Positions 16,751 to 62,102 of a stretch of DNA of 64,000 bases are shown in pieces (position 1 is the stretch's first letter; each line of letters opens with the position of its first letter). The notes under the pieces were generated by a model. The model saw nothing but the letters and a program-made list of their open reading frames with translations. It had not been told where the DNA came from and did not search any database. The position numbers and the translations under genes were made by a program. The DNA lies in assembly GCA_046726415.1 (NCBI GenBank), contig JBKPAK010000156.1, positions 25,335-89,334 on the forward strand, in the 5' to 3' direction. The DNA comes from Candidatus Methylomirabilota bacterium. Lineage in GTDB: Bacteria; Methylomirabilota; Methylomirabilia; Rokubacteriales; CSP1-6.

Positions 16751-17614
16751 ATGGCGAAACCTGTCTCGAGCAAGCGCGAACCCTCGTCGCGAGGCCCAGC
16801 TCTCGTTGAGCCCGTAGCACGCCCGGACTGGTTGATCGTGCTGCTGGCCGTAGCCGGTCTGATCGTCAGCGGCTATCTGGGCTGGTTGAAGGTCCGCGGG
16901 GGAGGCGCGCTCCTCTGCGAGGCCGGCGGCGGCTGCGATATCGTCCAGGCCAGTCGCTATGCCACGATCCTCGGCGTGCCCACCGCTCTGTGGGGTAGTG
17001 CCTTCTATGCCGCCATCGGCACGCTCGCCGGCCTCGGCCTGTCGGCCCAACGCTGGCTCTGGGCGTTCCTGCTCGCAGCGGGGGGCGCCGCCTTCTCTCT
17101 CTATCTGACCGTCATCGCGCTGCTGGTCATCGGCGCCGCCTGTCCGTACTGCCTGGCGTCGGCGTCGATCGCGGTCGCCCTGGTGGCGGTGATCCTGTGG
17201 CGCCGTCCGACAGTCAGGGGTCGGAGGTCGCCACTGCGTTGGTCGCGCATTCTCCCGCTCGGAGGCGTGGCCGCGCTGATCGCGGTCGTCGGCGGGGCGG
17301 CGGTCTTTGCCTCCTACCCCGGGGGGGCCTCGGCCTATCAAACAGGTCTCGCCCGTCACTTGGCCAAGATCAACGGTGTGATGTATGGCGCCTACTGGTG
17401 ACCCGCCTGCAAAGAGCAAAAGGCCCGGTTCGGGCCGGCCGCCAGCGAAGTACCCTACGTGGAGTGCGACGCGCGGAGTATCGGCGCACGGCCCGACCTC
17501 TGCAACGCCCTCGGCGTCCGCGCGTACCCCACCTGGATCATCGGCAACCAGCGCCTTGAGGGCGTGTTGACCTTGGAGGAGCTGGCCCGACTGTCCGGCT
17601 TCCCGGGAACATGA
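16751..17614 (+). CDS. VKOR-thioredoxin fusion, predicted selenoprotein (UxxC, TGA 17399-17401)
   Basis: VKOR motifs CEAGGGC and CPYC, then YGAYW-TGA-PAC-KEQK...VPYVEC...YPTWII in frame to stop at 17612-17614; hairpin at 17422-17436. Confidence 0.85.
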
Positions 17615-17683
17615 GCAACGCACGCGGGATCGTGGGGCTAGGGAAACGTCGGTGAATCGCCAGTTTCCGTCCGTTATGCTGGT

Positions 17684-18325
17684 ATGCCAGTAGAGACGTC
17701 CACCGTCGTCGCCAGTGCTGGCCGCCAGGCCATTGCCCGGCGTGGTCGCCTCCTGCAGTACCTCACCATCGGATGGAACACCGCGGAGTGCGCGGTGGCC
17801 CTGCTCGCCGGTCTCTGGGCGGGCAGCATCGCCCTCGTCGGCTTCGGCGTCGACTCCGCGATCGAGGTCACCAGCAGCTTGGCCGCGCTGTGGCGGCTGT
17901 GGAGCGACGCCAACGAGAAGCGCCGCGAGGCCGCCGAGCGTCGCGCGCTTCGCGTGATCGGCGTGTGCTTCCTGCTGCTCGCCGTCTACATCCTCTACGA
18001 GGCAGTCGTCGCGCTGGCAGTTCGACGCGAGCCCGAGGCGAGCCCAATCGGGATCGCGCTGGCGGCGCTGTCACTCGTGGTGATGCCACTGCTCGCCAGG
18101 GCCAAGCGCCGGGTAACTCGTCAGCTCGACAGCGGCGCTCTCGAAGCCGAAACGCGCCAGACCCTGATCTGCGCCGCCCTTTCCGCCATCCTCCTAGTCG
18201 GCTTGGGGCTACACGCCGCGCTCGGCTGGTGGTGGGCCGACCCCACGGCAGCCATCGCCATGGCTCCGCTCATCGCTCGCGAGGGCTGGGAGGCCGTTCG
18301 CGGTCGGACCTGCTGCCACTCATAG
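17684..18325 (+). CDS. Cation diffusion facilitator-like membrane protein (short form)
   Basis: GSIALVGFGVDSAIE, LGWWWADP; C-terminal CCH. Confidence 0.8.
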   Translation: MPVETSTVVASAGRQAIARRGRLLQYLTIGWNTAECAVALLAGLWAGSIALVGFGVDSAIEVTSSLAALWRLWSDANEKRREAAERRALRVIGVCFLLLAVYILYEAVVALAVRREPEASPIGIALAALSLVVMPLLARAKRRVTRQLDSGALEAETRQTLICAALSAILLVGLGLHAALGWWWADPTAAIAMAPLIAREGWEAVRGRTCCHS

Positions 18326-18389
18326 CGCCCAACGGTCAGACTGCTGCTACGTAGCGCCGACCGCATCGCGCCTCGCAGGGCCAACCGCC

Positions 18390-18980
18390 TCAAACTAGCC
18401 AACGCAGGAGGCGCCCAAGGCGGTGACCGTCGGCGGCCGCGCGGTCGAGACGCGGGGCAATGAACGAGTCAAGGCCAAAGCTGCGGCCGGCATCCGTGAA
18501 GAGGAAGATAACGGGCAGCATAATCAGCATGACGTAGGTCCACACCCACTCGTGGGGCACGCTCACGATCCCGATCGTGATGTTGAGCGCCATGCCGATG
18601 GCTACCAGCGAGCCGAGGCGGGTGAAGAGGCCGAGCATGAGGGTGGCGCCGATGAACGTCTCGGTGATGACCGTCATCCAGCCGAAAAACGTCCAGTTCG
18701 GAATCATCACGTTTACCAGGAAATCCCTGTAGGCCTGTACCGTCGGATACAGGACCTCCTGCTGCACCCAGTACCAGAGCCCGCCCCCCGACTTTCGCCC
18801 GAAGTCGTCTGACGGCACCTTCCACTTCGATTGCCGCCACCAGAGCACGCCGTAGAGGATCCGGACGAGCCCAACCGGCCAAAGGGGAGCCGTCGCCGAA
18901 AGCCACCCTACTCCGGCGCCCTCTCGACTCTGTGCGATCCCTCTTACTTCCGCTGGCAATTCCTTCATGGCCTGCTCCAT
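18390..18980 (-). CDS. DoxX/DoxD (TQO small subunit-like) membrane protein
   Basis: RILYGVLW, ETFIGATLMLGLFTRLG, AGRSFGLD. Confidence 0.7.
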   Translation of the reverse strand: MEQAMKELPAEVRGIAQSREGAGVGWLSATAPLWPVGLVRILYGVLWWRQSKWKVPSDDFGRKSGGGLWYWVQQEVLYPTVQAYRDFLVNVMIPNWTFFGWMTVITETFIGATLMLGLFTRLGSLVAIGMALNITIGIVSVPHEWVWTYVMLIMLPVIFLFTDAGRSFGLDSFIAPRLDRAAADGHRLGRLLRWLV

Positions 18981-19072
18981 CGTCGCCTCCCGAGGACCAG
19001 AGTGGCCCTCGCGTTCGACGATTCGGACACGCGCGCCAGGCCTCGCGGTTCAGCGCCTGGCGAGTCGTCCTC

Positions 19073-19747
19073 CTAAATGCCGCCTCGATAGAGGTCGCGC
19101 ACGAAGGCGAAGGTACGTGCGGGCCCACCTCCGACCGCCGTCATCTCAGCGTGCAGGCGCCGGAGGTCGGGCTCGGTGTCGACGTCGAACCACATGGGAA
19201 GAAGATGGATCCGAAGTTTCCGGTCACGCGCCCGCTCGACGGTCAGCGGCAGCACCCGCTCCGTGCTCCAAGGCATGTCTTCGAACAGCGCGGGCTGGGG
19301 AGCGCGCAGCCCGATGAGATAGTAGCCGCCGTCCTCGCATGGTCCCAGCACCACGTCGGCATTCCCGCCCTCGAGTCGCCTGGCAGCTTCGGCGACGTAA
19401 CTCATTGGCAAGGTTGGACTGTCGCTGTCGATGGCAATCGCGCCACAGTGGCCCTCCTCGAGCAAACCGGTGAGCAGATTCGAGAGCCGCTCGCCGAGAT
19501 CGGATCCCATTTGCGCGAGGAGGCGGAAAGTGGGCGGCGCCACCGTCGCCAGGAACTCCCTGCCCTCGGGAGGCGTGAACGCGATCACCGGCCGAACTTC
19601 GGACAGCGCGCCGAGCGCGTCGAGCCGGTCGAGGAGAAAGCAGCGGTAGAGCTCGGTGGCGCGCTCGGGCGTCAGCGCCGCGTGCAGCCGCGACTTGACC
19701 GGCCCGAGTCCAGGCGACTTGGCCATGACCGCCACCGCCGGCCTCAC
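19073..19747 (-). CDS. DUF2064/TIGR04282-like glycosyltransferase (CofC-like)
   Basis: MAKSPGLGPVKSRL, QMGSDLGERL, IDSDSPTLP, VLGPCEDGGYYLIG, WFDVDT. Confidence 0.85.
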   Translation of the reverse strand: MRPAVAVMAKSPGLGPVKSRLHAALTPERATELYRCFLLDRLDALGALSEVRPVIAFTPPEGREFLATVAPPTFRLLAQMGSDLGERLSNLLTGLLEEGHCGAIAIDSDSPTLPMSYVAEAARRLEGGNADVVLGPCEDGGYYLIGLRAPQPALFEDMPWSTERVLPLTVERARDRKLRIHLLPMWFDVDTEPDLRRLHAEMTAVGGGPARTFAFVRDLYRGGI

Positions 19748-19765
19748 GGCGCTAGGAACCCGCCA

Positions 19766-20758
19766 CTACAGACTCCACTTGACGCCGCAGCCCCGACACG
19801 GCTCCGGCGGCGTGGCGGTCTGGACGTCCTCGCGAAATGTCAGGTACCGATCGCCCCACCAGATCTCGGCCAGCGACTTGCGGAGGAGGTTGCCCAGGAT
19901 GATCCCGGCGTAGTGCTCGGTAATCCATGGGGCGATGCAGCATGGCAGCACGTTGCCGTGCACGGTCACGTAGACCAGGGTCCACGGACGCCGGCATGCG
20001 CTCCAGGGCCGGTCGTCGTGGGAAGGCTCTAGGCTGACCTCGGGCGTCGTCGCCCCCGAAGCCGAGAACACAATCCCCGCCTCTCGCGCCGCCGCCTGGG
20101 TCGTCTGGATGAGCGCGTTCTCGCGCTGATGGAGCCGGCCGTGAAGTGACTGGGCCTCGGTAGCGAGCCCGAGGCCGTTGTAGACGAGCCGCTGGAGGTA
20201 GATGGCTCGGGCGCCCATGCGCTCGGCAAGGATCACGAGGCCGGGGATCTCCTCGATATTCTCGCGAAGCCCCGTGAACCACAAAGAGACAGTGGGCGCG
20301 GTGGCCCGGCCGTGCCCGAGAGCGACGAACCGTGCGACGTTGGCGATGACCTTGTCGAAAGCGTCCACACCTCGGATCCGCGCGTAGGTCTCCCGCGTGC
20401 TCGCATCGAGCGAGACGCGCAACTCGTCCAGGCCCGCCTCGAGCAACTCCTGGGCGATGCGCTCCGATAGGGTGATTGCGTTCGAGTTGAAGAGCACGAC
20501 GGCACCGCGGTCCTTGAGGTGGGCTACCATGCGAGGAAGATCGCGATTGAGGAGCGGCTCACCGATGCCGTGCAGCAGCACCCGCTCCAGGAGCGGGAAC
20601 TGGTCGACCATGGCCCGGAACTCGTCCCACCCGAGGTCCTTGGCGGGCTCGCGGCCCCCGAAGGTGAGGATGCAGGTCTCGCAGAGCGAGTTGCAGCGGC
20701 TCGTCGTCTCGAGATAGAGCGAGCGCGGCAGCGCTGGGCGGAGGGTCAGGGCACTCAC
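19766..20758 (-). CDS. Radical SAM protein with SPASM/twitch domain
   Basis: CNSLCETC; CRRPW...VLPCC; CRGC. Confidence 0.85.
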   Translation of the reverse strand: MSALTLRPALPRSLYLETTSRCNSLCETCILTFGGREPAKDLGWDEFRAMVDQFPLLERVLLHGIGEPLLNRDLPRMVAHLKDRGAVVLFNSNAITLSERIAQELLEAGLDELRVSLDASTRETYARIRGVDAFDKVIANVARFVALGHGRATAPTVSLWFTGLRENIEEIPGLVILAERMGARAIYLQRLVYNGLGLATEAQSLHGRLHQRENALIQTTQAAAREAGIVFSASGATTPEVSLEPSHDDRPWSACRRPWTLVYVTVHGNVLPCCIAPWITEHYAGIILGNLLRKSLAEIWWGDRYLTFREDVQTATPPEPCRGCGVKWSL

Positions 20759-21432
20759 GAGACCTCGCGGGCGGAGCGGATCGCCACCGTCATGAATGCC
20801 CAGCCGGCCCGCACGCTGCCGGTCAGCGTGCCCGCGACCTTCGAACGCCCCCCCAGCCGCGGGGCGTGCGTCACGGGCACCTCGACGATGCGCGCGCGCA
20901 GGGCGGCCGCCTTGACGACCATCTCCACGGGCCAGCCGAAGCCGCGATCGCGCATGCCGAGGCGCCGCAGAACGTCGACATGGATCGCGCGCAGCGGGCC
21001 GATGTCACTGAGGCGCACGCGAAAGCGCCACGCCACGAACGCCGCCACCAGCCGCGTCCCCAGCAGCGCGTGCAGCGGATGATGGCCATCGAAGCGCCGG
21101 GCCCCGAGCACGAAGTCTGCACACCCCTTCTCGAGGGGCGCCAGCACGCGCGAGATTTCCTCCGGAAGCTGGCTGCCATCGCCGTCGAGGAACACGGCCA
21201 CATCGGTCTCCCCTCCGAGCGCGGTCACCCCAGCCCAGCACGCTGAGCGGTAGCCGCGGCGTGGCTCGCTCACCACGCGCGCTCCAGCCCGCGCCGCCTC
21301 GCTGGCCGTCGCGTCGGCGGACCCGTTGTCCACCACGATGATCTCGCTGATGCAGCTGCGCGGCACCCGCCGCACGAGCCCCCCAATCACCTCGGCCTCA
21401 TCGAGCGCCGGAATGATGAGAGCCGCCCTCAT
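20755..21432 (-). CDS. Glycosyltransferase family 2
   Basis: IIPALDEA, VVDNGSAD, FLDGDG, FGWPVEM. Confidence 0.85.
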   Translation of the reverse strand: MRAALIIPALDEAEVIGGLVRRVPRSCISEIIVVDNGSADATASEAARAGARVVSEPRRGYRSACWAGVTALGGETDVAVFLDGDGSQLPEEISRVLAPLEKGCADFVLGARRFDGHHPLHALLGTRLVAAFVAWRFRVRLSDIGPLRAIHVDVLRRLGMRDRGFGWPVEMVVKAAALRARIVEVPVTHAPRLGGRSKVAGTLTGSVRAGWAFMTVAIRSAREVS

Positions 21433-21487
21433 CGGTCTCGGGCTCCCCCGGCGCGGCCCAGGCGCGCGGCGGTCATGGCCGTTTCCG

Positions 21488-22495: not shown

Positions 22496-22498
22496 CCG

Positions 22499-23839: not shown

Positions 23840-24094
23840 TCGGATACTGACGCCGGCCTCGGTGGCTCCCTGCCGCCGCTTCGAGAGGGGACAGCGGGCG
23901 CGTCGGCGTCGGGCGCAACGGACGAGATCGTGATGACGGGAATGGCGAACCGGTCGGCCCGCATGCCCCCTACGCTAGCAAATCGTGTGGCCGTGCACGA
24001 TCAGATGCCGAAGGTTCGTCGGGGGCACATAGCCCCTCCCATCGTTCGACCACGCCTCAAGGCACGCCGTCATTCCGCCCGCGGGGTGCCAAGC

Positions 24095-24790: not shown

Positions 24791-24907
24791 GTGATCCTCC
24801 TCGGGTTCTCGAATGTGCGGATTGACCGCGAGGTGGATCTACCATTTCAGTACGAGGTAGGTGTCAAAACGCTGTGACGCAGATGTCAAATCTTGTGGTG
24901 GGAAGAA

Positions 24908-24963
24908 CGGATCAGCGGGTTGACGCTCACGGCCGAGGTCATCTGGAACCCGCTGACCCTCTG
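24908..24963 (-). repeat. Degenerate 56-bp copy of the soxZ-like domain at 27013-27068
   Basis: 52/56 identity by manual alignment. Confidence 0.8.
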
Positions 24964-25041
24964 CCGATCGTCGATCTCTTTGCCGGGCGCTGGCGCCGGC
25001 TGACGCCCGTGGGGCGCCAGCCGCGGCAAGACGCAAGCGCC

Positions 25042-26070
25042 CTATTCGAGCTTGCGGTAGTGCAGGCGCACCAGCTGGGCCGGGCTCTTGTCAGTCTGGA
25101 TGAGACCTGCGTCCATCCGGTCCTTGAACGCCCGCTCCAGATTCTCCGCCACGTCCACCTTGCGATCGAAACCGAGGGCGGCCGCGGAACTGGCGGCGGC
25201 CTGGACGGGCAGAGCGGCAGGGTAGTAGCCGCCCGCTTGCGTCGTGATCACCGCCCGTGCCGGATTCTCGGCGACCCACTGCTTGGCCCGCCGGAATGCA
25301 CGGACGATGGCCGCCGCCTTGTCCGGGTGACGGTCGACGATCTCGCGCTTGATGCCGAAGAAGCAGCAGTACTCCCGGTTGTACGGCGCCTGGTATGTCT
25401 GCGAGAACAGCACTTTGGCAATCTTCCTCTCGCTCAGGATGACCTGCTGGGGCTCGGTCACGCCGACCGCGTCGAACTTGCGCGCCTTGAACCCCTCCGC
25501 CACGTAGTCCCCGATTCGGGGCAGGGCGTCCCACGGCATCGGCCTCAGCGTGACATCCTTCGTCGGATCGACGCCGGAGGTCTTGAGCTCGGTGTTGACG
25601 AAGGTGAGGCCCTGCACGACGCGGAAGGGGGCAACCCACCACGGATTCATCTCGACCGTTTTGCCCTTGAGATCCGCCGCTGACGCGAGCGTGGAATCGA
25701 TCGGGACCATCACGTCCATGCAGCCGAAGTTCATCCCCTCGACGATGTAGTGCCCGATCTTGCCGGCCGCCATGTGATGGAGTTGGTCGACGTCAATGAA
25801 CCCGAAGTCCGCCTCGGTCAGCCCCTTCTCCGTCTTGACGTAGAGGAAATTCGTCTTGCCCTGCTCGACCGCGCCTCGGGTGTCGACGGGGAGGCCCTGA
25901 ACCGTCAACCCCTCCTCGGCGAAGAAGCCCTTCACGAGGGCCGCGTACAGCGGCAGCATTCAGGTACCCGCGCCATACCCCAGGGTGTATTTCTCCTGCG
26001 CGGATGCCGGGGCCATCCCCGCAGAGATGGCCAGGACGAGGAGTGTCGCGCAAACGCCCAACTGCTTCAT
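25042..26070 (-). CDS. ABC transporter substrate-binding protein (SsuA/NMT1 type), predicted selenoprotein (U37, TGA 25960-25962)
   Basis: GGAG plus ATG 26070 overlapping upstream stop; signal peptide MKQLGVCATLLVLAISAGMAPASAQ; YGAGT-TGA-MLPLYAALVKGFFAEEGL in frame; later GC and YCC; hairpin at 25927-25941. Confidence 0.8.
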
Positions 26071-26828: not shown

Positions 26829-26915
26829 GAATATCCCTCCCGAGGGGCCGACCGGATCATCGATCGACGGCGCCGGATTGTCAACCGGACCAACCCAACG
26901 CCCCGCGGAATCAGA

Positions 26916-28848: not shown

Positions 28849-29511
28849 ATGGCACTTCAGGAAAAGCTCGACGCGATGCGGGAAATGTCCAAGACGCGGA
28901 TCCCCCCTGAAGCCCGGGCGGTCATGGAGCGCAGCATCGCCGACCTCCGGGCCTCCGGGATCATGAACCGGGTCGCCCGGGTCGGGCAAACCGCTCCGCC
29001 CTTCACGCTGCCCAACGCCGACGGGCAGTCGGTCAGCCTGACGGAATTGACGGCCCGCGGCCCGGTCGTGCTGTCGTTCTACCGCGGCCGCTGGTGACCG
29101 TACTGCAACGCAGAGCTGGAGGCTCTGCAGCAGACCCTGCCCGAGATCACCGCCGCCGGCGCCACCCTCGCCGTCATCTCGCCCCAGGTGGCGCGCACGC
29201 CCCGCGAGACGGAGGAGCCCAAGCCGCTGTCGTTCGAGCTCCTGCGCGACTTCGGCAATAAGGTCGCCGAGGCGTATGGCCTGGTCTTCACCTTGCCCGA
29301 CGACCTGCGCGCGATCTACCTCAAGTTCGGCATCGACCTGGCCCTGGGTAACGGTGATGGCACCTGGCGGCTCCCCGTCCCCGCCCGGTTCGTGATCGAT
29401 GGCCAGGGCATCATCCGCGATGTCGACGCCGACCCCGACTACACCCGGCGCTCAGAGCCGGCCCGGACCGTGGAGATCCTCCGCGGCCTGCCTGGAAAGG
29501 AGCGAGCATGA
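28849..29511 (+). CDS. AhpC/TSA peroxiredoxin-like protein, predicted selenoprotein (UxxC, TGA 29095-29097)
   Basis: FYRGRW-TGA-PYCNAELEAL continuing in frame to LPVPARFVID...DYTRRSEP; hairpin at 29110-29128. Confidence 0.9.
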
Positions 29512-30032
29512 GCACCGTGCCCGATGGGCTGAACCCCAACATCCAGACCCGCGAGATCGTGTTCGATGCCGACGTCAACCTGGTCACGCCGTTTCTCAAG
29601 CTCGCCACGGTCAGCCGGGGCGGCGCCGGCCACATGACCTTCGCCTCCGACGAGGGACCCACCCTCGGCGGGCTGGGCTCGGCGCCCACGCCCCTCATGT
29701 ACTTCAGTGCCGCCCTCGCGTTCTGACTCATGACCCAGGTGTCCCGGTACGGGCACATGCTGAAGGTCACGGTGAACGGGATGCGGATGCGGGTGACGGC
29801 GCGCTACCGGGTCGACGGCTCGGTACTGAACGACACCATCCAGGGCCAGATGCTGGGCGCCGAGACCACCTTGGAGATCGACTCGCCGGACCCCCCGGAG
29901 CGCGTGGCCCGGGTCGTGCGCAACGCCGAGCGCGGCTGCTTCGTCATGCAGGCGCTCCAGAAGCCGGTGCCGGTCACCGGCCGCACCTTGCTGAACGGTG
30001 CGCCCCTGGAGGCGGCCACCGCTGTACCCTGA
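29508..30032 (+). CDS. OsmC/Ohr-like protein, predicted selenoprotein (U73, TGA 29724-29726)
   Basis: SDEGPTLGGLGSAPTP...AALAF-TGA-LMTQ...AERGCFV; both OsmC Cys positions accounted for; hairpin at 29739-29756. Confidence 0.9.
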
Positions 30033-30101: not shown

Positions 30102-30630
30102 GTGGCGGGATTGACCGACCGTGCGGAATGGGACCAGCGGCGACACCTGGACAAGATCCACCCTCTTCCAGATTTCGGCCCGACCCCGTTCGTGCCCGGC
30201 CCCCCGCTCGGAGAGCGGCGGGTCGCCATTGTTACCACCGCCGGAATTCACCCGCGCGGCGTCCGCCCGTTCGAGGTGGGCTCGACGGATTACCGAGTCA
30301 TTCCCGGCGACACGCCGCCCGGCAATCTGGTGATGAGCCATACCTCGGTCAATTTCGACCGCACGGGCTTCCAGGAGGACGTGAACGTCGTCTTTCCCCT
30401 CGAACGACTGCGCGAGCTGCACAAGGACGGCGTGGTGGGCGCGATCGCCGGTCTCCACTATTCATTCATGGGCGCCTCGCCCATCCAGGCCTTAGAGCCG
30501 AATGCGCGTAAGCTGGCCGGCCTGATGAAAAACGAGGGGGTCGACGCGGTTCTCCTCGTTCCCGTCTGACCGAACTGCACGTGTGCCGTCGGCGCACTCG
30601 GGCACTTCATCGAACGAGAGGGTGTGCCGT
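30102..30630 (+). pseudogene. GrdB/PrdB-like reductase selenoprotein B (UxxC, TGA 30567-30569), C-terminally truncated
   Basis: RVAIVTTAG, DVNVVFPLERL, HYSFMG, DAVLLVPV-TGA-PNC...GHFIEREGVP; family-like sequence stops at about 30630; hairpin at 30581-30597. Confidence 0.75.
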
Positions 30631-31511
30631 CATGCTCGCCCTCGCCACTGTCCTGTTCGCCCCCATGCTGGCCTCTGGCGAGGCCTTCGGCCGCCCGGTG
30701 GCCGGCGCGGTCGCGCCAGCCAGCCTGTCGGTGCTGGTTGGCGCCTTCGTGTTCGCGATCGGGATGCAGCTCGGCGGGGGCTGCGGGTCAGGCACGCTCT
30801 ACCACGTGGGCGTGGGGAGCAGCAGGCTCGTTCTGACGCTGCTCTTCTTCGTGGTGGGCGCAGTGCTCGCCACCTTCCACATGCCCTTCTGGACGGCGCT
30901 GCCCTCGCTCGGAGAGATCTCGCTTGGGGAGCGCCTCGGCTCGGGAACCGCCGTCGCCCTCCGGCTCGCCGTCTGTGGACTCCTGGCCGTCGCGACACTG
31001 TGGGTGGATCGGCGGCGCGGGCTGCCGGCTTCACCGAGGACGTCCGCCCCGCCCGGTGGATGGTGGCGCATCCTTCAGGGCCCATGGTCGCTGGTGGCTG
31101 GAGGTGTCCTGCTCGCCCTGCTCAACCTCCTCACGCTTCTGGTCGCCGGTCACCCCTGGACGATCACGTGGGCGTTCGCCCTGTGGGGCGGAAAGGCCCT
31201 AGCCCTGAGCGGGTACGATCTCTCGGCGATTCCGTTCTGGACGGAGCCATTCCAGCAGCACGCGCTGGCCGCCCCGGTGCTCGCTGACGCAACCTCGGTC
31301 ATGGACATCGGTCTCGTGCTCGGCGCCTTCCTCGGGGGCGGACTGGCCGGCCGCGTCGCGCCCAAACCCCGCGTGCCGCTCTCCCGCCTGGCCGCCTCGG
31401 TCGTCGGAGGGCTGATTCCACGAGCCTCCATGGCTGGTTCTGGGGTGTAGCCGCTCTCGTGGGGACGCCCATCGGCGTGCACCTGCGCCGTCGCTTTGGC
31501 CTCGACGATTG
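30630..31511 (+). pseudogene. YeeE/YedE sulfur-compound transporter, N-terminus missing and internal deletion near 31416
   Basis: GMQLGGGCGSGTLY present; second GC motif absent; tail SLHGWFW...RFGLDD lies in a shifted frame. Confidence 0.7.
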
Positions 31512-35068: not shown

Positions 35069-35072
35069 GGCG

Positions 35073-36170: not shown

Positions 36171-36763
36171 CGCCGGCGAGCGAGCTGCTGGCCCTCCTCG
36201 AAGCGCTGGAGCGCAAGGGCACCAGCGTCATCGAGCTCGTGCGCGATGGCCAGCCCCAGGAGCCGTGGCGGCTCTACCCAGCAGAGAGCGGGATCTTCGA
36301 TCGGCGCACGCGCTACCAGTTCTACTACCACAGCCACGGCGCCGCCCTCGAGGCCGGGCACTTCCATACCGTGCGCTTGTTCGCCGATCGGACGGTGCAC
36401 CTGGTTGCGATCTCGAGGGCGCCCGACGGCTGGCCGCAGGCGTTGTTCACGCTCAACCTGTGGGCGATCGGCGATGCCTACGAGAGCGCCGCCGCCCTCA
36501 AGCACTACGCCACGGGCTTCCGGCTCCGCAAACAGGTCGGGCCTTTGCCGCTCGTCCGCTTCGTCAACCTCGTCTTCCAGGCATTCTTGCCGGAGATCGA
36601 GCGACTTCAGGAGGAGAAAATCGAGACGCTTGCCCAACACCGTGCGTCCCATCCGGACCACAATGTCTTCGAGGACCGTTCGCTCGAGATCTTGAGTCGG
36701 GTGGCGATCGACGTGCGGGCGCGCGCTGGCAGCGTGACCCTGGCCACGTGCAGTTCCCGATGA
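36167..36763 (+). CDS. Conserved hypothetical protein (DUF6969-like)
   Basis: ATGA overlaps on both sides; QFYYHSH, GHFH, HLVAIS, LFTLNLW. Confidence 0.65.
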   Translation: MTPASELLALLEALERKGTSVIELVRDGQPQEPWRLYPAESGIFDRRTRYQFYYHSHGAALEAGHFHTVRLFADRTVHLVAISRAPDGWPQALFTLNLWAIGDAYESAAALKHYATGFRLRKQVGPLPLVRFVNLVFQAFLPEIERLQEEKIETLAQHRASHPDHNVFEDRSLEILSRVAIDVRARAGSVTLATCSSR

Positions 36764-37335
36764 AGAGCGCGCTGGCGATGTCCCGCGCCGCCCGTCAAAC
36801 TCTGTTCGCCCTGCTGCTGGCTAGTCTCTCGCTCGCCGCGCCCGGCGCCGCCGTGAACCTCGATCAGCTCATGCGGGACTTCCGCGTGACACCGGTGGGG
36901 TTGAAGCTCGCGCCAACCTTCACCCTGGCGACTCTTGGCGGAAAGCCAGCCACGCTCACCGCACAGCGCGGCCGCCCCGTCCTGCTCTACTTCTGGGCCA
37001 CCTGGTGACCACACTGCACGAGGGAGTTACCCTCGTCCATCGAGCAGCTGCACCGCGATCTCGTGGCCCGCGGCCTCTCCATCTTGGCGGTGAACATCCA
37101 GGAGAGCCCGTCGACGGTGGCCGCGTGGGCCCATGAGCGCAACGTCACCGTGCCGATCCTGCTCGACCCCGACGGGGAGGTGACGCGCCAGTACGGCGTG
37201 ATCGCAACCCCGACGACGTTTCTCATCGACCGCGAGGGGCGGCTGCTCGGCCGCGTCGTGGGACCGCGCGCCTGGGCCTCGCCCGAGGGCAAGGCGTTGA
37301 TCGCCGCTCTCCTCGAGGCTCCATCGCGCCCGTGA
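36760..37335 (+). CDS. TlpA-family thiol-disulfide oxidoreductase, predicted selenoprotein (UxxC, TGA 37006-37008)
   Basis: LYFWATW-TGA-PHCTRELP...YGVIATPTTFLIDREG; hairpin at 37018-37036. Confidence 0.9.
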
Positions 37336-42091: not shown

Positions 42092-42164
42092 CCTTCACGG
42101 TGGGTTGTCGGTCGCGGACCCCGCCATCCCCCCAGCGACCAAGGCCGCGAGCATCCCCGTCTGT

Positions 42165-44382: not shown

Positions 44383-44892
44383 TCACTTCTTCGGGCCGCA
44401 GGGGTTCTTTGCGGCGCATGGATTTTTGGCCGCGCACGGGTTCTTGGCGGCGCAGGGATTCTTCGCCGCACACGGGTTCTTGGCCGCGCACGGGTTGGCT
44501 CCGCCGGCCTGAGCGATGTACACGTAGGCGGCGCGGCGCGCCCCCGTCTTCTCCACGTAGGAAACAGTCACATCCGATCCCGCCTTCACATCGGCGAGCT
44601 GCCTCCGCTCGGGGCCCTGGCGGACCTGCGTTCGCTGATCGACGGTGAGCGCCAGGGGGCCTGCCGCCGTCCTGACCTGGAGCGCACCGGAACTGACGCC
44701 GGTCACCTTGGCCTTCGCCATCTTGGCGATCCCGGGGACAGAAGCCGCTCCGCCCGCGCAGGGGTTCTTGGCACAGGGGTTCTTGGCGGCACAGGGATTT
44801 GCCCTCTGTGCCATCACCTCGGTGGCCGGAGCGAGGCTCAACGCAACGGCAACCGACACGGTCGCGATGAGTGGACGAATCATGGGGTTCAC
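44383..44892 (-). CDS. Secreted protein with NPC(A)AK Cys repeats flanking a small beta domain
   Basis: Signal peptide; 3 N-terminal and 6 C-terminal NPC units; GGAGG RBS. Confidence 0.85.
   Translation of the reverse strand: MNPMIRPLIATVSVAVALSLAPATEVMAQRANPCAAKNPCAKNPCAGGAASVPGIAKMAKAKVTGVSSGALQVRTAAGPLALTVDQRTQVRQGPERRQLADVKAGSDVTVSYVEKTGARRAAYVYIAQAGGANPCAAKNPCAAKNPCAAKNPCAAKNPCAAKNPCGPKK
44389..44496 (-). repeat. Six 18-bp coding tandem repeats (NPCAAK)
   Basis: Units vary mainly at synonymous positions. Confidence 0.9.
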
Positions 44893-45500
44893 CTCCTTTC
44901 CATCCTCCGCGTCGGAGGAGAATCGGCCCGGTCTGGCCGGGCCAGGTTCGAAGTGTTTGGGGCAGGGGCATCGAGGAGCACCTGAACGAGCGCCTGAGCC
45001 GGGGGGCCACTCCAGTCCTTTCTCCCGGAGCCTCCCGCCCGGACCCTCGCAGACCGATCGATCAGGAAGTGCGTGGGGGTGAACCGCACCCCGTACGTGC
45101 GGGCCACCTCGCCCCTAGCGTCGATGGCGATGGGGAACGTGAGCTTCATGTCGGCCACGTAGGCCTTCACGCGCTCCTCGGGCTCCGACAAGTTCACTCC
45201 GATGACTCGGAGGCCTTGTTCGCGCCTCGCCCTCCACAGCGCCTCCAGGGAGGGAAACTCCCTCCGGCAGTGGGGTCACCATGTCCCCCAGAAGACGATG
45301 ATCGCGGCCAAGCCGGCCGGAGAGGAGACGCTGACCGGGTGGCCCTTCAGATCCGGGAGCGTGAAGTCCGGCGCTCGGATGCCGCTGTCGAACCGCACGA
45401 GGCCGAAGGCCTCGAACGGGTCCGGTGAGCCCGCGAGAGCTTGGCCGGCGAGGTAGAGCAGCGCGCCGAGCGTCAAGACGGAGGCTCGCGCTCGCCTCAT
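44889..45500 (-). CDS. TlpA-family oxidoreductase, predicted selenoprotein (UxxC, TGA 45276-45278)
   Basis: IVFWGTW-TGA-PHCRREFP...YGVRFTPTHFLID in frame; hairpin at 45249-45265. Confidence 0.9.
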
Positions 45501-46238
45501 GGCTTCTGGCCCTTCCCGAACGTCTCGCGGATGTACCGCAGCACGCCCCTAATCTCGTCGTCGGACAGGACGTGGCCATACGGCTGCATGGTGTCGTGGC
45601 CGGCCGACGGTCGCGCCGACCCGCCCGTGCTTGATTAGGGCAAGGAGGTAGTCGTCGGAGAAGCGATCCATGAACAAGGGATCGTGGTAGTCGGCCGGAG
45701 CCGGCTGAGCGTCGCTCACGAAGTGAGGTGGCGCGGGCTGCTGGGGGCTCGCGCGTGGCCCGTCCCCGCGCCCCCGCTGGCCGTGACACGGCGCGCAGGA
45801 GTCGTCGTAGATCTCTCGGATCTCCGGCGACTGTGGTGCCCCGGTCCTGAAGGCGCGCTCGAAGGCAATGAGTTGGCGGATCTGCGCGTCCTCGAAGAGG
45901 TGCCCGAACGAGGGCATGGCCAGCGACTCCAGCGGCGAGTCCTTGACTTCACGCTTGAGGACGGCGAGCTTGCCGTACTTGATGACCTCGAACAGGTACT
46001 GGTCGGTGAGCCGCGACATGTAGTTGGTGTCACTGAACACTTGGGGGCGGGGCATCGTGTTGAGCCACGAGGGCCCCTTGCCGTCCCCCGTCGCCCCATG
46101 ACAGGCGAAGCAGATCTCCTTGTAGACGCTCTCGCCGAGGGCGAGATCGCCGCGCGGGACACTCTCGGGCCCACCCAGCGATGCGGTCACGAGCACGGCG
46201 ATCCCGCCCACAGTCGCCACCCCTCCCCACCGGCGCAT
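45497..46238 (-). CDS. Diheme c-type cytochrome (frameshift near 45600)
   Basis: CFACH, CAPCH, AMPSF; C-terminal MQPYGHVLSDDEIRGVLRYIR in a shifted frame. Confidence 0.75.
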
Positions 46239-46305: not shown

Positions 46306-46848
46306 CTAGCGCAGGCCGAGCTTCTTCTCCTGCTCGATCCGCTTCTGCTCCCACTCCTTCATCGCCTTGTACCGCGCCGGCGTCAGCGAGGTCACGTACG
46401 CTTCGAGGTCGATGTACTCCTGAGAGTTCGGATCCATCGGCTCACGGCCGAGGAATACGGTGTTTCACATGTCGTTGAGGATGCCGATCGTCGCCACGTA
46501 CCCCGGTCCGGCGATGCGCGGGTAGTGGTCCGCTGCCCCGCGAAGGTCCGGGATGGGAATGGGCATCCTGGTCCCGTCGACCATCGTTGCCGTCCCGCCG
46601 ATGGTTCCGCCTCGCGGGTGACAGCCAGCGCACCCGAGATCGTTGAACAGCTTGCGCCCACGAGCGATGGAGGCGTCGATGGAGTCGCTCGGCTTGAGCG
46701 TCTCCGTGTACACGCCCGGCGTGATGTCCTTCTTCTGCTGGGCCTTCTGCTGAGCGAAGGCGATACCAGATGTGCAGCACGGAGAGAACGGACCGCTCCC
46801 GGCCGCGAGGATCATTGCCGCGAGACTCAGGGCCATCCACTTCCTCAT
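46306..46848 (-). CDS. SoxA/TsdA-like monoheme cytochrome c, predicted selenoprotein (U128, TGA 46465-46467)
   Basis: Signal peptide, CAGCH, DLRGAADHYP...ILNDM-TGA-NTVFLGREPMDPNSQEYIDLEAYVTSL; 52 further codons to TAG; hairpin at 46437-46451. Confidence 0.8.
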
Positions 46849-46881: not shown

Positions 46882-47883
46882 TCACCTTGACGCTGGAGCC
46901 CTGACGGCGGTCGCAGGACCCGTCACCGCCGTGGCCAGCTCTTTCCAGCGCCAGCCGCCATCCTCGCTCACGAACACGAGCCCGCCCGTCCCGGCGTAAA
47001 CTGTCCCGGGCCGGTGGGGATTCGCACTCACGAACGTGATCGTGAGCGTCAGGACATCCTCCCCGACGGGGGTCCAGGCAGTGCCACAGGGCTGAAGTCG
47101 GTGAACGCCTCCGACGGTGCCGGCGAATCGCTCGCCTTGCGGCGTGACGAACAGGGAGAGGACAGTCAGGCTCCGCAGCGCCTCACTGAGAGGGCGCCAA
47201 GTCCTTCCTCCGTCGGCGGTGACGAACACGCCCCCTCCCGCGGTCCCCGCGTACAGGGTCTCGGGCCTCGCCGGGTGGAACGCGAGCGCCCTCACGCGCA
47301 GATCCGTCAATCCCTGGTTCACGGCGTGCCAGTGGCGCCCCTCGTCTTCACTCCAGGCCACGCCTCCGAACCCGGCGGCGAAGAGCCGCGTAGGACGGGA
47401 CGCATCCAGGCGCAGGACCCGGAGGTCTCGCGATGGGAGCCCGGCGTTGCGGGGGGTCCAGCTAGCTCCCCGATCTTGGCTCCACAGCATTCCCTCATTG
47501 GTCGCCGCGTAGAGCACCCTCGGATTGTTCGGGACAACCACGAGACTCCGGACGTTCTTGCCCGCGATGGACCCCCCCGCGCGCCGCCAGGCCTCTCCGC
47601 CGTCCTGGGAGACAAAGACACCAGAATCGGTTCCCGCATACAGCGTGCGCGGGGACACCGGGTCGACGGCGAGGGCCAAGACGCTGAGATCCTCGAGGCC
47701 TCGGGAAGCTGAGGACCACCGGTGGCCTCCGTCGACACTCCTGTAGACGCCGCTCCCGAAGGCCGCCAGGTAGAGCGTCCCGGGCTCCGTCGGATGCGGG
47801 ACGAGGGCGACGACCACGCCCGCGAACGGTCCACCGTGCATCACGATGTGATTCGACGACGCGGGCAGAACAACCACGAGCAC
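46882..47883 (-). CDS. Secreted BNR/Asp-box beta-propeller protein
   Basis: Repeated SxDGGxxW boxes and LYAGT motifs; start uncertain. Confidence 0.8.
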   Translation of the reverse strand: MLVVVLPASSNHIVMHGGPFAGVVVALVPHPTEPGTLYLAAFGSGVYRSVDGGHRWSSASRGLEDLSVLALAVDPVSPRTLYAGTDSGVFVSQDGGEAWRRAGGSIAGKNVRSLVVVPNNPRVLYAATNEGMLWSQDRGASWTPRNAGLPSRDLRVLRLDASRPTRLFAAGFGGVAWSEDEGRHWHAVNQGLTDLRVRALAFHPARPETLYAGTAGGGVFVTADGGRTWRPLSEALRSLTVLSLFVTPQGERFAGTVGGVHRLQPCGTAWTPVGEDVLTLTITFVSANPHRPGTVYAGTGGLVFVSEDGGWRWKELATAVTGPATAVRAPASR

Positions 47884-60290: not shown

Positions 60291-60707
60291 TTCGCCGCCC
60301 TCGGCGGCGGGAGCATGCGCTTGACACTGGGAATGATCGGCGGACTCCGGGCCTTTCGTGAGCTTCGCGAGCAGCTCCGACGTCACCCCCGGGAACTGAT
60401 CGAGAACGATGGAGCTCGCGACGACAAGGGCCGCGACGATGAGAAGCGTGAGCGTGACCCTCTCTCCGGCCATGCGGCACGCGAGTTGTTTGCACCGCCC
60501 GCGTTCGCGCGCGTAGAGCACGAAGCCGGTGCCCACGCCGAGGATCCCCGCCGGAATGAGAATCCACCGGTACTGCATGGTCACCGCCATGAAGGCGCCG
60601 CTGCCGAGCCCCAGCACGATGATGGCGAGCGGCAGCAGACAGCAGAGCGACGAGAGCACCGCGCCGGCCCAGGCTGCGACCCCGGCGCCGAACGACCCGG
60701 GTCTCAT
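60213..60707 (-). CDS. MerT-like mercury transporter; C-terminus runs into LivF remnant
   Basis: SSLCCLLP in TM1, QYRW, cytoplasmic CKQLAC, three TM helices. Confidence 0.7.
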   Translation of the reverse strand: MRPGSFGAGVAAWAGAVLSSLCCLLPLAIIVLGLGSGAFMAVTMQYRWILIPAGILGVGTGFVLYARERGRCKQLACRMAGERVTLTLLIVAALVVASSIVLDQFPGVTSELLAKLTKGPESADHSQCQAHAPAAEGGEWVLAIADTITKIQQRASPSSSWSKT

Positions 60708-60913
60708 CGGGATCGGCCTCGCGCAGCCTGGTAGCGATAGGCCGCCAGGGCGACGAAGCCGACGACGAGGGCGAGCAGCACCAGATCCGCCCGGCCGGTC
60801 CACGCGCCAAGACCCACCGCTCCCAGGAGCACGACCGCGGCCGGCGTCAGACAGGCCAGACACGCGAAGATCGCGCCGAGCACGCCCAGGGTGAACCAGC
60901 GATCACGCCACAT
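60704..60913 (-). CDS. MerF-like small transporter
   Basis: ACLACLTPAAVVLLGAVGLGAWTGRADLVLL; ATGA overlap with merT-like gene. Confidence 0.7.
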   Translation of the reverse strand: MWRDRWFTLGVLGAIFACLACLTPAAVVLLGAVGLGAWTGRADLVLLALVVGFVALAAYRYQAARGRSR

Positions 60914-60922
60914 TGGCCCCGC

Positions 60923-61213
60923 CTACAACGCTTCCGCGGCGAACGCCCCGTACTCGAACGTGAGCCGGTATCCGCGGCCGCAACACTCGATGAGGTCGCC
61001 AGCTTGGGCCCCGTCCGGCAGGGTCAGCAGGCCCTCGCAGTCCGGGCAGCTCACGCGATGGGCGAGCGTCGCCACCCACTCGCCCCGCTCTTCCCTGAGC
61101 CGGAGGAGATGACCCGCGCAGTTGGGGCACTCCACCAGACCGCCGGCCCGAGTCGCCTGAGGGAGCTCCACCATCTCGCCACAGTCTGGACAGCGAACCT
61201 TCGTCATCGTCAC
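60923..61213 (-). CDS. Tandem Zn-ribbon (LysW-like fold) protein
   Basis: CPDC, CPNC, CPDC, ECC. Confidence 0.7.
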   Translation of the reverse strand: MTMTKVRCPDCGEMVELPQATRAGGLVECPNCAGHLLRLREERGEWVATLAHRVSCPDCEGLLTLPDGAQAGDLIECCGRGYRLTFEYGAFAAEAL

Positions 61214-61449
61214 ATGCCCAGGAGCCGCTGCAGGCGGCCTCGATCGAATCCCACGATCACTTGGTCGTCGACGGTGATGACCGGCACGGCCATCCGTCCC
61301 GTCTTCGCGACCAGCTCCTCGCGGGCGGCAGGATCCTCGGCCACGTTCTTCGCGCTGAACACCACCCCATGGGACGAAAGAAACTCTTTCGCCGCGTGGC
61401 ACGACTGTCAGGCCGTGGACCAGTACACGGTCACCTGTCGGTTGGCCAT
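61210..61449 (-). CDS. Glutaredoxin/NrdH-like protein, predicted selenoprotein (U14, TGA 61408-61410)
   Basis: [26 protein letters not shown]...AVPVITVDDQVIVGFD; hairpin at 61375-61391; absent from the ORF track. Confidence 0.9.
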
Positions 61450-62102
61450 CAGTGCCCTCCCTGGAGGAGCCCTCCGAAGATGCGCGTCCCCAGCTTGAAT
61501 GCCTCGGCCACCGTCGCGCCCGCCCCCGGCACGTCCGGGTTTGCCGCTCGCCACACCCGCAGATGCTCTTCCGACCGGAAGAAGTTCAGCGTCGTTCAGA
61601 GTGATGTGGCGACGCGGCGCTGGTCCTCCGAGCGAGTCCCTACCCACACCATGGCCGCCTCTGACTCGAGACCCGCCCCATCGGGCCCGGCCTCCAGCGT
61701 CAGGGGTGTCTGGCAGTGGTGGCACTGGGAGCGGATGTGAAGCGGTTGGCCGAGCATGGGGGCCATGCCGAGCGCGTCGATCGCGCAACACGCGTATCGC
61801 TCCGCCCCGTCGGCGAATCGCACCATGAAAGCCGTCGGAAGCGCGGAGAACGGATACGCGATCTCCACGCGGTCCCCCTGGAGCTGGAGCAGATCCTCAT
61901 CGTCCAGGGCGACCAGCGTCTCCCGGACGACCGCAGGGGCATGGCTCGGGAGAGCGGCGGTGACCTCCTCCAACGAGACCGCACCGCTCCGATCGCGAAA
62001 GGCTCGGAGGACGTCCGTCTGACGGGCCTCTCGGCGAGCGGTCCACCGGGCCTCCAGCGCGGGGTCGACCAGCTCCTCCGCGGTCTTGATCTCAAGTTCC
62101 AT
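61449..62102 (-). CDS. MerB-like organomercurial lyase, predicted selenoprotein (U169, TGA 61596-61598)
   Basis: [42 protein letters not shown]; read-through stop overlaps next ATG (TGATG); hairpin at 61567-61582. Confidence 0.85.

Follow-up and report, generated by a model that had tools for sequence, protein, structure and literature searches.

Ten in-frame UGA codons in a 45-kb stretch of a Methylomirabilota genome very probably mark ten selenoprotein genes, nine intact and one decayed, including a cytochrome c with a candidate heme-ligand selenocysteine

Results

Ten in-frame TGA codons lie in genes of recognizable families

We analyzed a 64,000-nucleotide stretch of DNA (hereafter, the window) from a draft genome of a Candidatus Methylomirabilota bacterium (GCA_046726415.1, contig JBKPAK010000156.1, positions 25,335 to 89,334). 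Within window positions 16751 to 62102, a preliminary description of this DNA had proposed ten genes in which an in-frame TGA codon encodes selenocysteine (Sec, or U). All ten TGA codons were found at the coordinates and on the strands claimed, and each lies in frame inside one continuous family-like protein, with Pfam domains that span or abut every site (Table 1). The predicted products are a VKOR-thioredoxin (VKOR-Trx) fusion, an NMT1/SsuA-like binding protein, a peroxiredoxin-like (Prx-like) protein, an OsmC-related protein, a GrdB/PrdB-like protein, two TlpA-like proteins, a monoheme cytochrome c, a MerB-like lyase and a glutaredoxin-like (Grx) protein. Six of the sites form the UxxC motifs that had been noted (UPAC, UPYC, UPNC, UQSC and, twice, UPHC). 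In the binding protein, the cytochrome and the MerB-like protein, Sec falls instead at a ligand or catalytic Cys and not in a CxxC redox pair. Paralogs with Cys also occur in the window, as had been claimed, with WCIPC at residue 144 of the open reading frame (ORF) at 26070-26828(-) and WCPAC at residue 41 of the ORF at 49015-50628(+).

Two other statements of the preliminary description needed adjustment. It had called the encoded proteins largely exported, but when the translations were judged by eye, only about half (5/10: VKOR-Trx, the binding protein, both TlpA-like proteins and the cytochrome) showed a membrane or periplasmic topology or an N-terminus like that of a signal peptide. It had also stated that several of the read-through stops overlap the next start codon, which is loosely true: the TGA at 25960 is followed directly by an ATG with no overlap, and the overlaps that we observed join neighboring genes (ATGA at 26067-26070 and at 29508-29511). 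The expectation that standard gene callers split such genes was borne out, as public gene calls cut the cytochrome and the binding protein at the TGA.

Table 1. Predicted selenoprotein genes, candidate selenocysteine insertion sequence (SECIS) hairpins and neighboring genes (window coordinates)
Feature	Coordinates	Strand	Sec codon and context	Annotation
VKOR-Trx fusion selenoprotein	16832..17614	+	17399-17401, YW[U]PAC	Start uncertain (16697-16832)
NMT1/SsuA-like periplasmic binding-protein selenoprotein	25042..26070	-	25960-25962, GAGT[U]MLP	Signal peptide
CusF-TlpA fusion, Cys form (WCIPC)	26070-26828	-		Pfam; translationally coupled (ATGA) to the Sec binding protein
SoxY-SoxZ fusion	26919-27662	-		Pfam; upstream of the Sec binding protein
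Prx-like (AhpC/TSA) selenoprotein	28849..29511	+	29095-29097, GRW[U]PYC	Pfam AhpC-TSA, 98 bits
OsmC-related selenoprotein	29508..30032	+	29724-29726, ALAF[U]LMT	ATG overlaps Prx stop (ATGA)
GrdB/PrdB-like gene, 3'-truncated	30102..30635	+	TGA 30567-30569, VPV[U]PNC	Pfam GRDB profile ends just before U
YeeE/YedE-type sulfur/selenium transporter, Cys form	30632..31450	+		N-terminally short; Pfam Sulf_transp positions 28-270 of 310
TlpA/ResA-like exported thiol-disulfide oxidoreductase selenoprotein	36748..37335	+	37006-37008, ATW[U]PHC	
TlpA-like exported selenoprotein	44889..45500	-	45276-45278, GTW[U]PHC	Pfam AhpC-TSA, 97.5 bits
Diheme cytochrome c, presumed electron partner of the Sec cytochrome	45552..46220	-		Pfam Cytochrome_CBB3 x2; adjoins in 4/4 relatives
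Monoheme cytochrome c selenoprotein, SoxA/TsdA-like	46306..46848	-	46465-46467, LNDM[U]NTV	Signal peptide; Pfam Cytochrom_C
Candidate SECIS hairpin, cytochrome gene	46433..46454	-		Stem UCGGC/GCCGA, loop CGUGA
BNR/Ycf48-like beta-propeller	46885..47883	-		Pfam; first gene of cytochrome operon; syntenic in 4/4 relatives
MerF-like transporter	60707-60913	-		Pfam Transport_MerF; downstream in MerB-like operon
Four-Cys zinc-ribbon protein	60926-61213	-		Pfam Zn_ribbon_LysW; downstream in MerB-like operon
Grx-like selenoprotein	61210..61449	-	61408-61410, STA[U]QSC	ATG shares one base with MerB-like stop
MerB-like organometallic lyase selenoprotein	61449..62102	-	61596-61598, TSL[U]TTLNFF	Pfam MerB, 109 bits (cut-off 27)
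Candidate SECIS hairpin, MerB-like gene	61567..61582	-		UCUUCC-GGUC-GGAAGA
MerR-family regulator	62202..62723	+		Pfam MerR-DNA-bind, MerR_1, MerR; divergent from MerB-like operon

The genome encodes the machinery for Sec insertion

The host assembly is a 7.6-Mb draft of 352 contigs with 68% GC and 98% completeness, and the organism names attached to close homologs put it in Methylomirabilota / Candidatus Rokubacteria. The preliminary description had proposed a genome-wide search for selA, selB, selD and tRNA-Sec(UCA); we found all four, with the three proteins above the curated cut-offs of a profile search (SelA, 592 bits, cut-off 268; SelB, 374 bits, cut-off 242; SelD, 336 bits, cut-off 125). 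The selA and selB genes lie side by side on one contig (C313), adjoined by the gene for tRNA-Sec(UCA), which is a single copy among the 47 tRNAs of the genome. The selD gene has an in-frame TGA of its own and is thus a Sec-containing form.

If UGA were reassigned throughout the genome, or read through nonspecifically as Trp, Gly or Cys, full-length proteins would also result, and we found nothing that speaks specifically for this reading. TGA is the commonest ordinary stop in the window, where it ends 58 of the 82 ORF calls; as only ten of these are Sec sites, UGA is not reassigned. In addition, the in-frame TGA codons sit on conserved Cys positions. A crude genome-wide scan for TGA codons flanked by coding signal, which returned 447 candidates with many false positives among them, also contains an excess of Cys at position +3 (34 candidates) and position -3 (13 candidates) relative to the TGA, compared with ~1% at other offsets. 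Together with the presence of tRNA-Sec, selA, selB and selD, these observations leave reassignment or nonspecific read-through with a probability close to nil.

The TGA codons are kept in relatives and stand at functional Cys positions

We searched 40 relatives, related at levels from genus to order, with each protein and scored the matches for in-frame stops. The TGA was present in 1/1 matches for the binding protein, 4/4 for the cytochrome, 25/28 for the MerB-like protein, 10/15 for VKOR-Trx, 32/33 for the GrdB-like protein, 12/13 for the OsmC-like protein and 28/34 for the TlpA-like protein at 37006 (one positive row of which is a genome, G011, flagged as unpublished). For the remaining genes, synteny identified a TGA at the same site in three loci for the TlpA-like protein at 45276 (L019, L021 and L022), in three for Grx, where it lies beside MerB-like genes (L025, L027 and L028), and in one for the Prx-like protein. 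Retention of the TGA in relatives thus extends to all ten genes.

Several of the matches that have no TGA carry Cys or are incomplete. When the TGA column was checked residue by residue, the codon was found in 10/12 MerB-like loci, 5/5 cytochrome loci and 4/6 VKOR loci, the rest having Cys. Three of the five VKOR matches without a TGA span the site (in genomes G001, G008 and G036), and the two of these that were read carry WCAHC (L037 in G001) and WCPAC (L038 in G008). The three such MerB-like matches comprise two full-length Cys forms and one N-terminal fragment, and the sole OsmC match lacking the codon is a C-terminal fragment. Alignment of Sec/Cys pairs therefore gave residue-level pairing for four genes (the binding protein, the cytochrome, MerB-like and VKOR-Trx), and in the other six a UxxC or family motif falls on a known Sec site. 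From these comparisons, Sec stands in for a functionally critical Cys at every site in the window. The sequence downstream of the TGA is conserved at the protein level in the binding protein, the cytochrome and the MerB-like protein, and third-position GC is 0.80-1.0 over the 90 nucleotides that follow 9/10 of the TGA codons. All three outcomes that the preliminary description had named as refuting its proposal (no Sec machinery, TGA codons not kept in relatives, no selection downstream) turned out the other way.

Synonymous sites are constrained where a SECIS hairpin should sit

A hairpin with a small G-containing loop begins 8-23 nucleotides after every TGA. We folded the 60 nucleotides after each TGA, scored the best single hairpin as well, and compared these values with those for 600 and for 150 ordinary Cys codons of this GC-rich genome. 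The energies lay inside the control distribution, no better than after ordinary Cys codons, so folding energy was set aside as a test for SECIS elements and a synonymous-site test was used instead. Pooling orthologs of the MerB-like, cytochrome and VKOR genes, we asked how often a codon whose amino acid is invariant is also represented by a single codon; this was the case for 18/23 such codons at positions +3 to +11 after the TGA but for only 17/60 elsewhere (Fisher P = 5e-5). For the cytochrome gene the corresponding values are 6/8 for codons +3 to +11 and 13/36 outside. Synonymous sites are thus constrained where the SECIS hairpin should sit.

In the MerB-like gene, the 20-nucleotide core AACTTCTTCCGGTCGGAAGA is unchanged in 8/10 orthologs with 45-77% protein identity. 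The remaining two differ by a single GAA-to-GAG change that converts a U-A pair to U-G, and the hairpin is intact in all ten. We take the loop and spacing of this hairpin to resemble those of the Escherichia coli fdhF SECIS.

One of the ten genes is probably a remnant

The GrdB/PrdB-like gene differs from the other nine. Its reading frame is cut off 22 codons after the TGA, and the coding signal moves to another frame within about 25 codons, whereas homologs run on for at least 90 residues after the Sec. It matches only positions 26-170 of the 238-position PrdB profile (88.8 bits against a cut-off of 300) and scores 43.9 bits against a cut-off of 65.45 with TIGR01918. The same-genus ortholog reads IEREGVPTAQISLIREHT and continues, whereas the copy in the window diverges right after ...IEREGVP, where the YeeE/YedE-type gene starts. 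That abutting gene matches the NCBIfam YedE/FdhT and TsuA models weakly. A tblastn search of the genome did not find the missing 3' part elsewhere. Gene order also differs, being Prx-OsmC-GrdB'-YeeE in the window and Prx-GrdB-OsmC in a genome of the same genus (G001). On this sequence evidence, the GrdB-like gene is probably a dead remnant of a rearrangement that retains a TGA at the canonical Sec position. Its counterpart in G001 (locus L049, G001:C8:63500-70500) spans the full length, although several changes of frame are required to read it, and may be a pseudogene or contain indel errors.

The state of this gene weighs against a uniform assignment of functional selenoproteins to all ten sites, as do the unremarkable folding energies described above and the lack of compensatory base changes in the MerB and cytochrome hairpins (0/6 and 0/15 pairs), the last because these stems hardly vary. 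The truncation and the energies would also fit the view that the TGA codons are ordinary stops in fragmented or decaying genes with residual homology, for which the GrdB-like gene, with its frame lost and at least 68 C-terminal profile positions missing, is the one fitting example. For the nine other genes, however, relatives from different genera and families retain the same TGA, and the flanking protein is under selection. The Cys at the site in homologs, the high third-position GC downstream and the complete Sec machinery also argue against ordinary stops, and we regard that explanation as extremely unlikely. Instead, it is highly probable that this genome decodes selected UGA codons as Sec, and that, of the ten selenoprotein genes spread over about six operons in these 45 kb, nine are intact and one has decayed.

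Read-through candidates peak in this stretch, which does not resemble a mobile element

The preliminary description had called this region an unusually dense selenoprotein island. The density is real: with 12 read-through candidates in our genome-wide scan, the 45.4-kb stretch is the maximum of the assembly, compared with a mean of 2.67 and a next highest value of 7. The Poisson probability is 2.4e-5 per scan window, or ~0.004 after multiplying by the ~167 windows, and 50-100 evenly spread Sec genes would place 0.3-0.6 in 45 kb, excluding chance as the source of the density.

Further candidates in this region were not counted. That at 42095(-), in an ORF at 41792-42151(-), is CMD-like but matches only the last 73 profile positions and has no ortholog in 25 relatives, and is probably not a Sec site. 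The sequence after the TGA at 57228(-) is not protein-like, and those at 46751(+) and 45426(+) were taken, from coordinates alone, to be antisense to real genes.

The Cys excess at +3 and -3 in the genome-wide scan implies that ~35-40 of the 447 candidates are true UxxC or CxxU selenoproteins; the scan itself missed two of the six UxxC genes in the window. By family, an in-domain TGA occurs in 17/33 AhpC-TSA (three of them in the window), 6/17 CMD and 7/7 UGSC domains of the genome, and a TGA occurs in 4/4 full-length GrdB, 3/4 glutaredoxin and 1/8 thioredoxin genes. Two short GrdB-like genes, three copies of OsmC, two MerB-like copies and one SelD also have a TGA. With the VKOR, binding-protein and cytochrome genes added, the family-supported Sec genes number about 49-50, which we take as a lower bound for the genome. 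Candidates of the GrdA, SelW-like, ArsC-like and DsbA-like types are present in the genome on motif evidence only.

A pair of Prx-like[U] and OsmC-like[U] genes occurs three times in the assembly, the other copies lying at C257:11922-12970 and C193:23210-24254, with 92-95% protein identity among the OsmC proteins. Either recent duplication or the co-binning of strains would account for them, and because of them the genome-wide count may include strain duplicates, which tells against taking it at face value.

The term island is apt for a dense cluster but not for a mobile element, as the stretch comprises about six unrelated operons with flat GC (0.66-0.69). The density could in principle be an artefact of assembly or binning, or reflect a mobile island gained by horizontal transfer: the assembly is a draft bin whose contamination is put at 4.66%, a further point against our reading, and near-identical extra copies of two genes lie on other contigs. 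However, all ten sites are on one 89-kb contig of flat composition, we found no tRNA in the window, a scan of 76 ORFs gave neither an integrase nor a transposase, and in G001 the genes for SoxYZ, Prx, a GrdB-like protein, OsmC and a MerB-like protein share one contig within ~27 kb. An artefact or mobile island is therefore very unlikely. As the composition is flat, matches to tRNA, integrase and transposase genes are missing, and part of the arrangement recurs in a genome of the same genus, we interpret the stretch as a native hotspot of about six operons.

A single-domain cytochrome c has a predicted Sec at the position of a heme-ligand Cys

The cytochrome is a one-domain protein of 180 residues with a single CxxCH motif (CAGCH at residues 73-77), in which Sec is residue 128 (U128). 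The order of its operon (BNR propeller, cytochrome[U], diheme cytochrome, TlpA[U]) is retained in 4/4 relatives, and the 52 residues that follow the Sec are near-identical in five genomes. All 120 of the public homologs listed stop at residue 127, that is, at the TGA; they come from Rokubacteria, Methylomirabilia/Methylomirabilota, Entotheonellia, Deltaproteobacteria, Nitrospinota and Binatia. Longer relatives without Sec were obtained by an exhaustive HMMER search, and in all 20 that we aligned the U128 position is Cys, with a variable residue before it (F, V, R, N, G, L and others). The only invariant columns of the family are Gly64, CxxCH, Pro110, the Cys at the U128 position and Leu148, and, apart from His77, no candidate ligand other than this Cys is invariant.

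We compared the family profile with proteins of solved structure. It matches SoxA (1h31) with E = 1.5e-14 and TsdA (4wq7) with E = 1.5e-11, and in these alignments the Cys/U128 column coincides with Cys222 of SoxA and with Cys96 of TsdA (counted from His53 in the alignment). The top seven Foldseek matches of an AlphaFold model of the cytochrome (pLDDT 83) are all TsdA, with E-values of only 3e-3 to 1e-2. In the available text of PMC6879331, the axial ligands of TsdA heme 1 are His53 and Cys96, Cys96 is essential for activity, the active-site heme of SoxAX likewise has His/Cys- ligation, and thiosulfate is proposed to be conjugated to the ligand cysteinate.

Alternatively, the sixth heme ligand could be Met127, or no residue at all, with Sec acting as a nearby catalytic residue. 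Met127 directly precedes the Sec and is invariant in the five close Sec orthologs, and a single-sequence alignment, albeit a weak one, places it in the Met-ligand region of a peroxidase E-heme domain; both observations speak against Sec as the ligand. There is also a precedent in MccSep, in which, as far as the available text describes it, Cys ligates the heme and Sec is separate (PMC13510729). Yet the 20 wider homologs differ in the residue that precedes the Cys, Cys128 is the sole invariant candidate in addition to His77, and the profile alignments, with E-values of 1e-11 to 1e-14, place U128 on the ligand Cys of both TsdA and SoxA. We therefore find Met127 ligation, or an open sixth position, doubtful. 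The best reading of this protein is a single-domain SoxA/TsdA-like enzyme with Sec as a heme-bound nucleophile, in which selenium probably replaces the sulfur that binds the heme iron.

In such an enzyme, Sec would be both the sixth ligand of the heme iron and a heme-tethered nucleophile, and its reaction with a sulfur substrate would give a Se-S adduct. The diheme cytochrome could carry the electrons away, and the TlpA[U] protein might keep the site reduced. No SoxX was seen, and the best match of the neighboring diheme protein is an uncharacterized cytochrome (6h5l_B), not TsdB.

A periplasmic binding protein has a predicted Sec near its N-terminus

The Pfam NMT1_2 domain covers residues 24-275 of the binding protein and spans its Sec, U37. 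Full-length homologs with 45-52% identity have Cys at this position in 13/13 cases, within the motif GxTC[H/M]; Cys117 is nearly invariant in them, and Cys235 and Cys236 are invariant. The ortholog in genome G038 (L017:716-1741, G038:C5) is 59% identical and has a TGA at residue 37, as well as a second TGA at the position of Cys117 in the window protein. The ATG directly after the TGA at 25960 is the start chosen by gene callers: of the 120 public clusters listed, 73 begin at Met38, 20 extend upstream, 2 begin just after residue 117 and 25 begin elsewhere.

The CusF-TlpA gene that precedes the binding-protein gene in the window is also upstream of the ortholog in L017, and no ABC permease or ATPase gene adjoins the window gene. 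Solved structures are only remotely related to this protein (E about 2e-4). We infer that, alongside SoxYZ and CusF-TlpA, Sec37, Cys117 and Cys235-Cys236 of this protein may hold a soft ligand, such as a sulfane-sulfur or selenium species or Cu(I). After the binding-protein gene comes a long run of genes on the same strand (18393-27662(-)), for a Spondin_N-like protein, a 446-residue membrane protein, two radical-SAM enzymes (one with SPASM), a GT2 glycosyltransferase, a DUF2064 protein and DoxD/DoxX.

A MerB-like operon contains two predicted Sec genes

The gene order of this operon is MerB[U], Grx[U], zinc ribbon, MerF and a MerT-like gene. In ten MerB-like orthologs, the columns of C106-A-I-D109 (within CCAIDAL) and of U169 show no variation. 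The family profile matches MerB2 (5c17; 8.5e-18) and MerB (1s6l; 1.3e-14), with U169 on the second active-site Cys. We take the catalytic residues of MerB to be C96, D99 and C159, so that Sec would occupy the position equivalent to C159. The Grx-like protein scores 62.5 with Pfam Glutaredoxin (cut-off 22.9).

Several results argue against a plain assignment of these proteins to characterized families. The MerB-like protein falls below the cut-offs of the NCBIfam MerB models (NF009710, 60.5 bits against 193; NF033555, 54 against 200) and of the SaoL model (NF040728, 61 bits against 140), and the Grx-like protein falls below that of YruB (TIGR02196, 84.4 against 88.55). No MerA is encoded in the window, and the best match in the genome scores 349 bits against a cut-off of 454; a canonical mercury-resistance role is therefore doubtful, and this is not a standard mercury-resistance operon. 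We suggest that the MerB-like[U] protein could cleave a carbon-metal bond with Cys106, Asp109 and Sec169 and pass the metal to Grx[U] and the four-Cys zinc ribbon, with MerF and the MerT-like protein as a possible membrane route.

The zinc ribbon is all-Cys in the window (CPDC...CPNC). Its homologs at L025:962-1231(-) and L027:3182-3463(-) have two to three TGA codons at Cys positions (CxG-U, U-PN-U), such that the operon would contain three selenoprotein genes and up to five Sec in these loci. A second MerB-like[U]-Grx[U] pair is present in the genome at C199:6327-7185, where the MerB part consists of two overlapping matches, maybe owing to a frameshift.

The remaining predicted Sec genes encode thiol-disulfide and peroxide-related proteins

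The VKOR-Trx fusion matches Pfam VKOR (PF07884, 83 bits against 27.5) and Thioredoxin, and its translation contains LLCEAGGGC, presumably the loop Cys pair, and CPYC, presumably the membrane CxxC. The TlpA-like protein at 37006 matches Pfam AhpC-TSA (103 bits) and Redoxin (97 bits) and is encoded by the last gene of an ECF-sigma/anti-sigma/DUF3179/DUF6969 operon (33687-37335). The OsmC-related protein scores 164.4 bits with NCBIfam NF041052 (cut-off 95). For the Prx-like protein, the same-genus ortholog that retains the TGA is in L049, and two more copies are present in the genome. VKOR-Trx[U] and the two TlpA[U] proteins may pass reducing equivalents in the periplasm, with the selenolate of UxxC as the attacking nucleophile, and the Prx-like[U] and OsmC-like[U] proteins, which have a divergent TetR regulator, may reduce peroxides.

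The DUF3179 protein of the TlpA operon (35004-36167(+)) has a Cys motif, FCPLC, whereas its family stands in Table 1 of PMC13188914 as a UxxC/T selenoprotein.

Two other genes in the stretch appear interrupted. An FGE-sulfatase gene at 39167-39919(-) was rejected as a Sec candidate, its in-frame stop at 39626-39628, between PGITK and DYEHQGF, being TAG and not TGA; the split may reflect a pseudogene, a sequencing error or another cause. A GH31 glycosidase gene at 51708-53575(+) appears as two overlapping ORFs (51708-52697 and 52481-53575), which suggests a frameshift.

Discussion

The operons described here deal with thiol-disulfide exchange in the envelope, defence against peroxides, redox chemistry of sulfur compounds and the handling of organometals. 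Beyond Sec decoding itself, our analysis leads to a broader, joint claim: that a widespread cytochrome family has a c-type heme with His/Sec ligation, that three further Sec forms lie outside the published table of families, and that the total for this genome may be at least 63. We see this joint claim as evenly balanced between holding and failing.

To place these genes, we used Table 1 of a 2026 review, which tabulates 119 prokaryotic selenoprotein families (PMC13188914). That table lists Prx-like, OsmC-like, GrdB/PrdB, Trx, Grx, thiol:disulfide interchange, Redoxin, DUF3179 and YeeE/YedE proteins, and also SaoL, SaoX, SaoB, BtuF, ExtKL and an octaheme cytochrome. The preliminary description had assigned the window genes to known selenoprotein families; five of the types are indeed known, but the VKOR-Trx fusion, the NMT1/SsuA-like binding protein, the monoheme SoxA-like cytochrome and a MerB with Sec at the C159 site are absent from Table 1 of PMC13188914. 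Absence here refers to that table; the papers of Haft and of Deng, their supplements and the BSepDB list could include these forms. According to the available text of the same review, a Methylomirabilota metagenome-assembled genome (MAG) was recently predicted to have 63 selenoprotein genes (Deng et al. 2026, via PMC13188914), and the earlier record was held by the Olavius delta-1 symbiont, with 57 selenoproteins, or 63 in BSepDB. As that 63-gene MAG has been reported, the selenoprotein richness of the phylum is already in print. As far as we have checked, the novelty lies in the local density and in the four Sec forms, with the heme-ligand form foremost. Literature searches for a natural Sec heme ligand and for a selenoproteome of Rokubacteria returned only MccSep (PMC13510729) and engineered P450s (PMC11273360), as far as the available parts of these sources describe them.

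If the assignment is correct, the His/Sec heme would be a natural counterpart of Sec-ligated P450s, which the available text of PMC11273360 presents as engineered so far. A natural selenolate heme would offer a native system in which Fe-S and Fe-Se ligation can be compared. It would also show the SoxA/TsdA mechanism, that is, a heme-tethered nucleophile and a covalent thiosulfate adduct, with a better nucleophile and leaving group. The genome total may equal or exceed 63, the size of the largest published bacterial selenoproteome. As 120/120 of the cytochrome homologs and 73/120 of the binding-protein homologs listed are mis-called, domains are being lost from databases across several phyla. 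Our data suggest that a lineage of soil and groundwater spends selenium heavily on extracytoplasmic redox, sulfur and organometal chemistry, which would bear on selenium demand in these habitats and on the upper size of bacterial selenoproteomes.

Clusters of selenoprotein genes have precedents. The available text of PMC13188914 describes selenoprotein operons of up to six genes, namely SAO with six and Tso with three. As in SAO and Tso, Sec genes share operons here (Prx-OsmC-GrdB', cytochrome-TlpA and MerB-Grx). Unlike in those systems, the ten Sec genes here, all within 45 kb, belong to about six operons that differ in function, and no SAO or Tso marker was matched at its cut-off. In its high genome-wide count, and in belonging to a phylum with a reported 63-selenoprotein MAG, this genome resembles the largest reported selenoproteomes.

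At the level of single proteins, the binding protein has a periplasmic substrate-binding fold with Sec, as do SaoX, SaoB and BtuF. It is distinguished from these by the T-U-M/H motif near its N-terminus, the conserved Cys117 and Cys235-Cys236, and the lack of an adjoining ABC permease or ATPase gene, and it matches the SaoX model (NF040735) with 22.3 bits against a cut-off of 300, over residues 194-273 only. The MerB-like protein resembles the MerB organomercurial lyase in its CAID motif, in the position of its second catalytic Cys and in having MerR, MerF and MerT-like genes beside it. It differs from SaoL, whose motif is given as CU in Table 1 of PMC13188914, in that the window protein has CC (CCAIDAL) and its Sec 63 residues later. 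The operon comes nearer to the Sec-assisted organometallic idea, but the SaoL model is unmatched and Sec is at another Cys.

The cytochrome shares with SoxA and TsdA a class I cytochrome c domain with CxxCH and a conserved residue, ~50 positions on, at the distal-ligand site, and the separate diheme cytochrome gene next door loosely recalls TsdB. It differs from them in having Sec for Cys at the ligand position, and in being a protein with a single heme domain where they are a diheme protein or a SoxA-SoxX pair. In the available text of PMC13510729, the pentaheme polysulfide reductase of Geobacter, MccSep/ExtKL, is likewise a c-type cytochrome selenoprotein with a site of the Cys-ligated-heme type that acts on sulfur compounds; in MccSep there are five hemes, Cys ligates the iron and Sec is separate, whereas in the cytochrome described here there is one heme, with Sec at the predicted ligand position.

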